Positions 1-527 of a DNA stretch of 7,336 nt are shown here, one piece after another. The DNA is taken from the IMG/VR virus record IMGVR_UViG_2541047844_000003, one strand, 5' to 3'. The notes below the pieces were generated by a model. It did no database searches. It had not been told where the DNA came from and saw nothing but the letters and a program-made list of their open reading frames with translations. The translations under genes and the position numbers were made by a program. Position 1 is the first letter of the stretch. Every line of letters begins with the position of its first letter. The DNA is from a virus (taxonomy: Duplodnaviria > Heunggongvirae > Uroviricota > Caudoviricetes).

Positions 1-95
1 GCACTGGGTTATCGCTCGCCACGGGAATATCTACGGCAGCAAGCCAGTAATGGGTTAAGTGATAACAGGTGTCTGGAAATATAGGGGCAAATCCA
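1..95 (+). mobile_element. 3' terminus of an IS2 insertion sequence (partial; element continues upstream of the window)
   Basis: Frame 1 reads through from the window edge as ...[27 protein letters not shown], stop at 82-84, which I recognise as the C-terminus of the IS2 transposase (InsD). The sequence TAGGGGCAAATCCA at 82-95 matches the IS2 terminal inverted repeat as recalled. No alignment was run. Confidence 0.65.
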
Positions 96-350
96 CTTTG
101 CACACTCGCCTGGTTATGGCGAGCAAGTGATACGATGTTAACCGCCTGCCAGAACGTTACGCCCCTTCTTCAGGTCGCAGAGCATCGCGAAGCAGGTAGA
201 TTCACTTCAATCGAACAAGAATATCCTCGGATACTCAACAGGGCGCGAGAAATCCTTGCCAGAGAAACGGCGCATGTAAAATTCCAACCGTGGCAGGATG
301 ATAAGTGGAGTCGTGTGTTACCATATTTCCGTCAGAATCTGTTGCAATAA
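69..350 (+). CDS. hypothetical ORF spanning the IS2 junction; residues from 96 onward may be the 3' remnant of a gene interrupted by IS2
   Basis: Six-frame track ORF with a GTG start that lies inside the IS2 terminus. Downstream of the IS2 end only this frame is open (85 codons, 96-350); the other two + frames hit stops within about 45 nt. First internal ATG at 135. Product not recognised. Followed by a strong terminator. Confidence 0.3.
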   Translation: MSGNIGANPLCTLAWLWRASDTMLTACQNVTPLLQVAEHREAGRFTSIEQEYPRILNRAREILARETAHVKFQPWQDDKWSRVLPYFRQNLLQ

Positions 351-369
351 AGTCACTAGTTAGAAATAC

Positions 370-410
370 TGCCAGCATTCTGCGATGACGGAAGTGCTGG
401 CATTTTTTTT
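370..410 (+). terminator. rho-independent terminator
   Basis: Perfect 8-bp inverted repeat TGCCAGCA (370-377) / TGCTGGCA (395-402), followed by a run of eight T (403-410), about 20 nt after the stop at 348-350. Confidence 0.65.
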
Positions 411-527
411 GGTAATGTGCGAGTCCATTTCATAAAATACGGGTACTGGAACTGGACGATATAATCTAAAAGATACCATTATCAGTAGCATTAAAATCGC
501 TATGTGCCGATACGGATATAAATTATA

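Follow-up and report, generated by a model that had tools for sequence, protein, structure and literature searches.

A probable single IS2 insertion splits an antirepressor-like gene in the ren-ninB interval of a lambdoid Escherichia coli prophage

The stretch of DNA analysed here (7,336 nt, referred to as the window) starts in the right end of an IS2 element. With a probability that we put at roughly 0.9, a single IS2 has transposed into codons 119-120 of a gene for a 202-aa protein with Bro-N and P22AR_C domains, located in the ren-ninB interval of a lambdoid prophage. The window is identical throughout to the last 7336 nt of scaffold KE701104.1 (assembly GCA_000459475.1), where it occupies L003 9933-17268. 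Coordinates marked L003 follow the numbering of this source scaffold and those marked L002 refer to a region of E. coli MB06173. A run of 1070 N (L003 8863-9932) ends one base before window position 1; the IS2 terminus is thus found at the window edge only because an assembly gap within a repeated element marks the start of the window. The 93-aa ORF at 69-350 was matched to a single public record, this scaffold. The feature is already known in kind: it is an ordinary strain-specific IS2 knockout in a regulatory module of a described family. Table 1 lists the features involved.

Table 1. Features at the IS2 junction and in the RNA leader of the interrupted gene. Plain coordinates refer to the window.
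Feature	Position	Strand	Basis
IS2 right end (IS3 family)	1..95	+	identity to IS2A and to the MB06173 copy
IS2 transposase OrfB/InsD, last 27 codons and TAG (82-84)	1..84	+	InsD1 comparison
IS2 right inverted repeat (IRR), 41 bp, with outward -35 TGGAAA (74-79)	55..95	+	repeat alignment
Hybrid ORF, 93 aa, from a GTG within IS2, annotated as a gene by the source assembly (unlikely to be a genuine, expressed gene)	69..350	+	gene call
CTTTG, 5-bp target-site duplication, right copy	96..100	+	left copy at L003 8764-8768, abutting the IS2 left end
3' remnant of the interrupted gene, residues 119-202 and stop, most of the P22AR_C domain	96..350	+	Pfam, PHROG, restored ORF
Intrinsic terminator of the antirepressor-like gene, hairpin 370-402 and T8 403-410	370..410	+	RNA fold
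isrK-type RNA	L003 8181-8253	same strand as the antirepressor-like gene	Rfam 58.7 bits (gathering 50)
C4 antisense RNA	L003 8278-8363	same strand as the antirepressor-like gene	Rfam 74.8 bits (gathering 45)
a1b1-type element	within the L003 8166-8363 block		Rfam 39.6 bits (below gathering, 46.7)

Results and discussion

Both ends of an IS2 element flank the assembly gap

As a reference we used the annotated IS2A of E. coli K-12 MG1655 (NC_000913.3 381260-382590, 1331 bp). The first 95 nt of the window align with its last 95 nt at 88 of 95 positions, and with the right end of a 1331-bp IS2 copy in MB06173 (L002 4765-6095) at 93 of 95. The element is therefore a variant, differing from IS2A by seven mismatches in this stretch and from the closer MB06173 copy by two. 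When positions 1-81 are translated, 25 of the 27 residues are the same as in the C-terminus of K-12 InsD1 and two differ; a Pfam search of this 27-aa transposase tail, which is too short for Pfam, gave no match. A full IS2 of about 1331 bp carries two overlapping frames, orfA and orfB, which a programmed frameshift joins. Only these last 27 codons of IS2 orfB are visible, the interior of the element being the gap of 1070 N.

The imperfect terminal repeats of IS2 measure 41 bp at the right (IRR) and 42 bp at the left (IRL) (PMC3299598). In the present element, alignment of IRL with the reverse complement of IRR yields 33 identical columns out of 43, and both repeats were recovered independently by a repeat search as an inverted-repeat pair (I1). 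The tip of the element is position 95, where the sequence ends ...GGGGCAAATCCA, with a CA-3' terminus. We set the boundary here because IS-free relatives match the window only from this point on: among the matches listed, 30 IS-free E. coli chromosomes show a 100% match that starts only at 95/96. An earlier note, made from the sequence alone, had taken positions 1-95 for the right end of IS2, with the transposase C-terminus and the terminal repeat. This reading is confirmed by the strong match to IS2A.

Upstream of the N run, the 94 nt at L003 8769-8862 begin with TAGACTGG and are identical to the left end of IS2A at 93 of 94 positions. This left end is preceded by ...GATAACGAACTTTG and the right end is followed by CTTTGCACACTC..., whereas the IS-free allele reads GATAACGAACTTTGCACACTC and contains CTTTG once only. 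Excision of IS2 together with one CTTTG in silico yields an ORF of 609 nt that matches the gene for WP_000211451.1 of E. coli 118UI at 609/609 positions. Chance cannot explain an IS2 identity of approximately 93-98% at both ends combined with a perfect 5-bp duplication and a fully restored ORF. The expectations of the earlier note also hold for the flanks: the other IS2 end and the 5-bp duplication are both present upstream, and the insertion has split a gene that has its 3' remnant at 96-350 and its 5' fragment on the far side of the element.

IS2 belongs to the IS3 family and would have arrived by copy-out/paste-in transposition through a minicircle. The result closely resembles K-12 IS2A, not only in the two ends, the InsD1 tail and the 5-bp duplication but also in being a simple insertion that leaves a split pseudogene, as yaiX in K-12.

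The interrupted gene encodes an antirepressor-like protein

In the restored 202-aa protein, Bro-N covers residues 17-100 (40.5 bits against a Pfam gathering score of 25.6) and P22_AR_C covers residues 110-180 (63.7 bits against 22.4), so that the IS2 site falls between the two domains. The remnant in the window is by itself recognized as P22_AR_C (49.3 bits, E = 5.4e-13). Protein family matches include PHROG 7640 (E = 2.2e-49) and PHROG 245, named 'anti-repressor Ant' (E = 1.3e-14), as well as PHROG 5060 and others under the same name. A PADLOC search of the split protein for defence systems gave no match. The identity of the interrupted gene, which the earlier note proposed to establish, thus points to the antirepressor type; a repressor-inactivating activity is suggested by homology annotation, and we use the term antirepressor-like.

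The 5' piece (L003 8410-8784) keeps its start codon and its native isrK/C4-RNA leader. It encodes residues 1-120 followed by four IS-encoded residues, RLAP, giving a product of 124 aa. On the other side, the frame that starts at 96 has the terminal TAA (348-350) as its sole stop, which amounts to 84 codons plus the stop, and the other five frames contain 2-4 stops each. The single open frame of 85 codons (including the stop) followed by a terminator, as described in the earlier note, is borne out by this frame and by the hairpin with its T8 tract.

Comparison with IS-free relatives shows the intact 609-nt allele in 118UI. The same DNA, 100% identical after excision, also encodes the 'Rha protein' XSB42083.1 of Escherichia phage PhiR26_1. 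These alleles share their neighbours with the interrupted gene (the PD-Lambda-1 gene, the 169-aa protein, ybcN, ninE, ybcO, rusA, ylcG, Q, the porin and the lysis genes) and differ in being uninterrupted and part of full-length phage or prophage genomes. The lambdoid prophage belongs to the E. coli argU/DLP12-site family, and the interrupted gene occupies its ren-ninB interval. This gene is an accessory regulator, and is neither Q nor one of the replication, lysis or structural genes.

An RNA leader of the isrK/C4 type precedes the gene

The ATG of the antirepressor-like gene (L003 8410) is located directly 3' of the isrK and C4 elements, outside the window. Similar leaders are present in 209 phage records, often beside genes annotated as antirepressor. 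A short ORF overlaps C4 (L003 8252-8392, TTG start, internal ATG at 8283) and ends 17 nt before the ATG of the antirepressor-like gene.

Targets of the C4 RNA were derived from exact complementary words; long duplexes proposed by RNAduplex, which ignores intramolecular structure, were set aside. The C4 segment TTGAGTAG (8321-8328) is complementary to 8220-8227 and to 8414-8421, and the segment ACGCCAA (8335-8341) to 8204-8210 and to 8367-8373 (all L003). Each segment consequently has one complementary site inside the isrK-like RNA and one adjoining the start of the antirepressor-like gene, where 8414-8421 corresponds to codons 2-4. In the predicted C4 fold ACGCCAA is unpaired, and TTGAGTAG spans a hairpin loop into the stem.

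In the c4-ant layout of P1 and P7, C4 RNA pairs upstream and at the start of its target, and the complementary sites here have the same layout. The c4 antisense RNA of the P1/P7 immI region reportedly controls icd-ant, a finding credited to Citron and Schuster in 1990. The likeness to immI (Rfam RF01695, RF03163) consists of a C4 match above the gathering score, a target gene of the antirepressor type, and two C4 segments complementary to upstream (a1/b1-like) and start-flanking (a2/b2-like) sites. There are differences as well: the present module belongs to a lambdoid prophage, it has no icd homologue, the target carries a Bro-N domain at its N-terminus, and the b2-like site is located on codons 2-4 of the antirepressor-like gene itself.

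A second system for comparison is isrK-orf45-anrP of Gifsy-1 in Salmonella (Hershko-Shalev et al. 2016, PMC4825925), where IsrK switches on translation of the antirepressor-like AnrP, which in turn triggers prophage induction. The likeness is one of gene order: an isrK-like RNA with a terminator, a C4/STnc1160-like RNA over a short ORF, then the antirepressor-like gene and a terminator. In contrast to Gifsy-1, the antirepressor-like gene is here broken by IS2, and no isrJ-like RNA was detected downstream (Rfam at gathering score, whole window). Because isrK-like and C4 antisense RNA elements precede it, the split gene is, by analogy, probably the output gene of an RNA-controlled module of the P1-c4/Gifsy-1-IsrK type.

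Consequences for the prophage

Judged from P1 Ant and Gifsy-1 AnrP, the insertion would have abolished or impaired an antirepressor-based, RNA-controlled route to induction. The intact form of an antirepressor-like gene that is probably under RNA control is lost in this strain, and spontaneous or stress-triggered induction may fall. The Bro-N-only fragment of 124 aa might keep some activity. In addition, SOS induction may need no antirepressor, as an S24 peptidase domain is present in the repressor of the prophage. Since the split gene ends in a terminator of its own, the insertion probably leaves replication, Q, lysis and downstream genes untouched. IS2 insertions in prophage accessory genes are commonplace; the case opens no new question and its practical consequences are limited.

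It might be argued that the insertion was selected as a 'taming' of the prophage, in which SOS-independent induction triggered by the IsrK/C4 RNAs was removed and the cargo (PD-Lambda-1 and the porin) was left intact. The Bro-N-only protein, which would stay under RNA control, might then act as a dominant-negative or altered regulator. That another strain has a second, independent IS2 approximately 880 bp upstream is a hint that the module may be hit repeatedly. Nonetheless, we consider such selection unlikely.

The earlier note had further suggested that the insertion helps to explain why the prophage is defective. Nothing shows a defect: the IS-free relatives are full-length and the interrupted gene is accessory. 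In 118UI the related prophage, at the tRNA-Arg argU/DLP12 site, comprises an integrase, exo/bet/gam, an S24 repressor, O, P and ren, together with Q, lysis genes, terminase, and head and tail genes through the tail fibres (its gpJ is annotated as frameshifted). PhiR26_1, deposited as a complete phage genome (host field E. coli K-12 MG1655), encodes this protein intact and unchanged, in the same gene neighbourhood.

A defect could in principle arise through polarity, if IS2 kept early rightward transcription from Q and the late genes. In one orientation IS2 is classically polar, and it sits here between the replication genes and Q, along early rightward transcription. There is, however, no sign of a defect in what is covered by the scaffold, which stops at window position 7336 with the late region of the IS2 strain out of view. 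Moreover, a convergent gene and at least two terminators (that of isrK and that at 370-410) are present in the interval whether or not IS2 is there, so transcription that reaches Q must already cope with these. A prophage made defective by polarity is therefore quite improbable, and the loss of an accessory regulator is the reading we retain.

A single element or two

We read the gap as a complete, single IS2, of which the interior is not seen. The apparent length of the element is 1259 bp against 1331 bp for IS2, with the 1070 N of the interior unsequenced; we read this difference as a reflection of an estimated gap size. The same figures might also indicate that the two ends derive from different IS2 copies, through a composite element with extra DNA, an inversion or deletion, or a scaffolding error that joined two IS2-ended contigs. 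IS copies are indeed typical break points in short-read assemblies. What weighs against two copies is that CTTTG at both junctions and the exact restoration of the 609-nt ORF are the outcome of a simple insertion, that an inversion or deletion between two copies would not give matching duplications and contiguous gene halves, and that the gap is close in size to one IS2. An origin from two copies is very unlikely in view of these observations, and the insertion of a single IS2 remains our reading. For annotators it is useful to know that the scaffold gap just 5' of the window is in all likelihood an IS2 copy.

Fate of the 3' remnant

The gene remnant is followed by the terminator that also ends the intact gene, and IS-free relatives have the same sequence at 370-410. 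Folding of the 76-nt stretch 345-420 gives -22.7 kcal/mol (z = -3.1), a value that none of 200 shuffled sequences reaches. A simple consensus terminator scan did not list the hairpin at 370-410, and Rfam at gathering score found no known RNA in the whole window. A miRNA family that appeared over the hairpin in a search with E <= 1 (E = 0.054, 23 bits against a gathering score of 76) was rejected as a chance match.

The geometry of the minicircle junction promoter (Pjunc) places an outward -35 in IRR (PMC3299598), and IS2 fusion promoters have been documented elsewhere, for example at ampC (PMC9330008, PMC3299598). It is thus conceivable that read-through from IS2 or a fusion promoter drives a P22AR_C-only protein with a function of its own, of 93 aa from GTG 69 or 72 aa from ATG 135. 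The remnant frame is open back to GTG 69 inside IS2, where the gene caller started its gene, and there is no terminator between the transposase stop and the remnant. Of the candidate -10 hexamers, however, those at spacers of 15-19 nt from TGGAAA match TATAAT at just 1-2 of 6 positions, on which grounds we rejected a fusion promoter at the IS2 right end. The promoter scan returned nothing at the junction, and by eye no Shine-Dalgarno-like sequence was seen within 20 nt upstream of GTG 69 or ATG 135. The native IS2 promoter is, furthermore, described as weak (PMC3299598). Expression of a separate P22AR_C protein is in our view highly doubtful.

The remnant would have lost its promoter, leader and start codon, and as these have no recognisable replacement it is most likely a silent pseudogene fragment that ends at its original terminator. 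The called 93-aa gene appears to be an artefact of the open frame, and annotators may best treat 69-350 or 96-350 as a pseudogene fragment rather than as a gene. The possibility raised in the earlier note, that the IS element drives adjacent genes, finds no support for the same reasons: no usable -10 is present, the promoter scan is empty, and a terminator some 275 nt further on lies ahead of the next gene (586-1095), so that transcripts reading out of IS2 would end there.

Distribution and age of the insertion

Most of window positions 1-1200 is carried by 176 of the 5426 complete E. coli genomes, and the exact IS2 junction by none of the 5426. One match to 1-1200 with 100% coverage, in MB06173, does not represent the same junction: it consists of two pieces, with IS2 at a different site. 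Since the junction is found in no complete genome, the duplication is perfect and the gene halves have not diverged, the insertion fits a recent, strain-specific event.

The IS2 of MB06173 is complete, independent, and likewise bordered by a 5-bp duplication (AACAC). It is placed in the same prophage region, approximately 880 bp upstream of the site studied here, between the PD-Lambda-1 gene and the isrK leader.

Neighbouring features

A YlcI/YnfO-like minus-strand gene is followed, after 18 nt, by the end of both scaffold and window (window 7145-7336). Because the scaffold ends at 7336, the late region of the source strain must be located on another scaffold.

A promoter-like site (409-438) precedes the gene for a 169-aa protein (586-1095, plus strand). 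This protein matches PHROG 1779 (unknown function) end to end (E = 1.7e-102) and has no Pfam or PADLOC match. A direct repeat of 104 nt, 89% identical between its copies at window 1172-1275 and L003 7906-8009, brackets the small ORF, isrK, C4, the antirepressor-like gene and the 169-aa gene. This arrangement suggests that the bracketed block forms a cassette and is exchanged when the two repeat copies recombine.

Between ren and the antirepressor module lies a gene for a 500-aa DUF4041/T5orf172 protein (L003 6095-7597, minus strand), which matches the PADLOC model for PD-Lambda-1 anti-phage defence (E = 6e-198) and is named 'PD-lambda-1' in the PhiR26_1 annotation. Finally, an intact gene for a 360-aa porin of the OmpC/NmpC type (window 3353-4435, minus strand) is located between the Q antiterminator gene and the lysis cassette, on the opposite strand, and represents typical lysogenic-conversion cargo.
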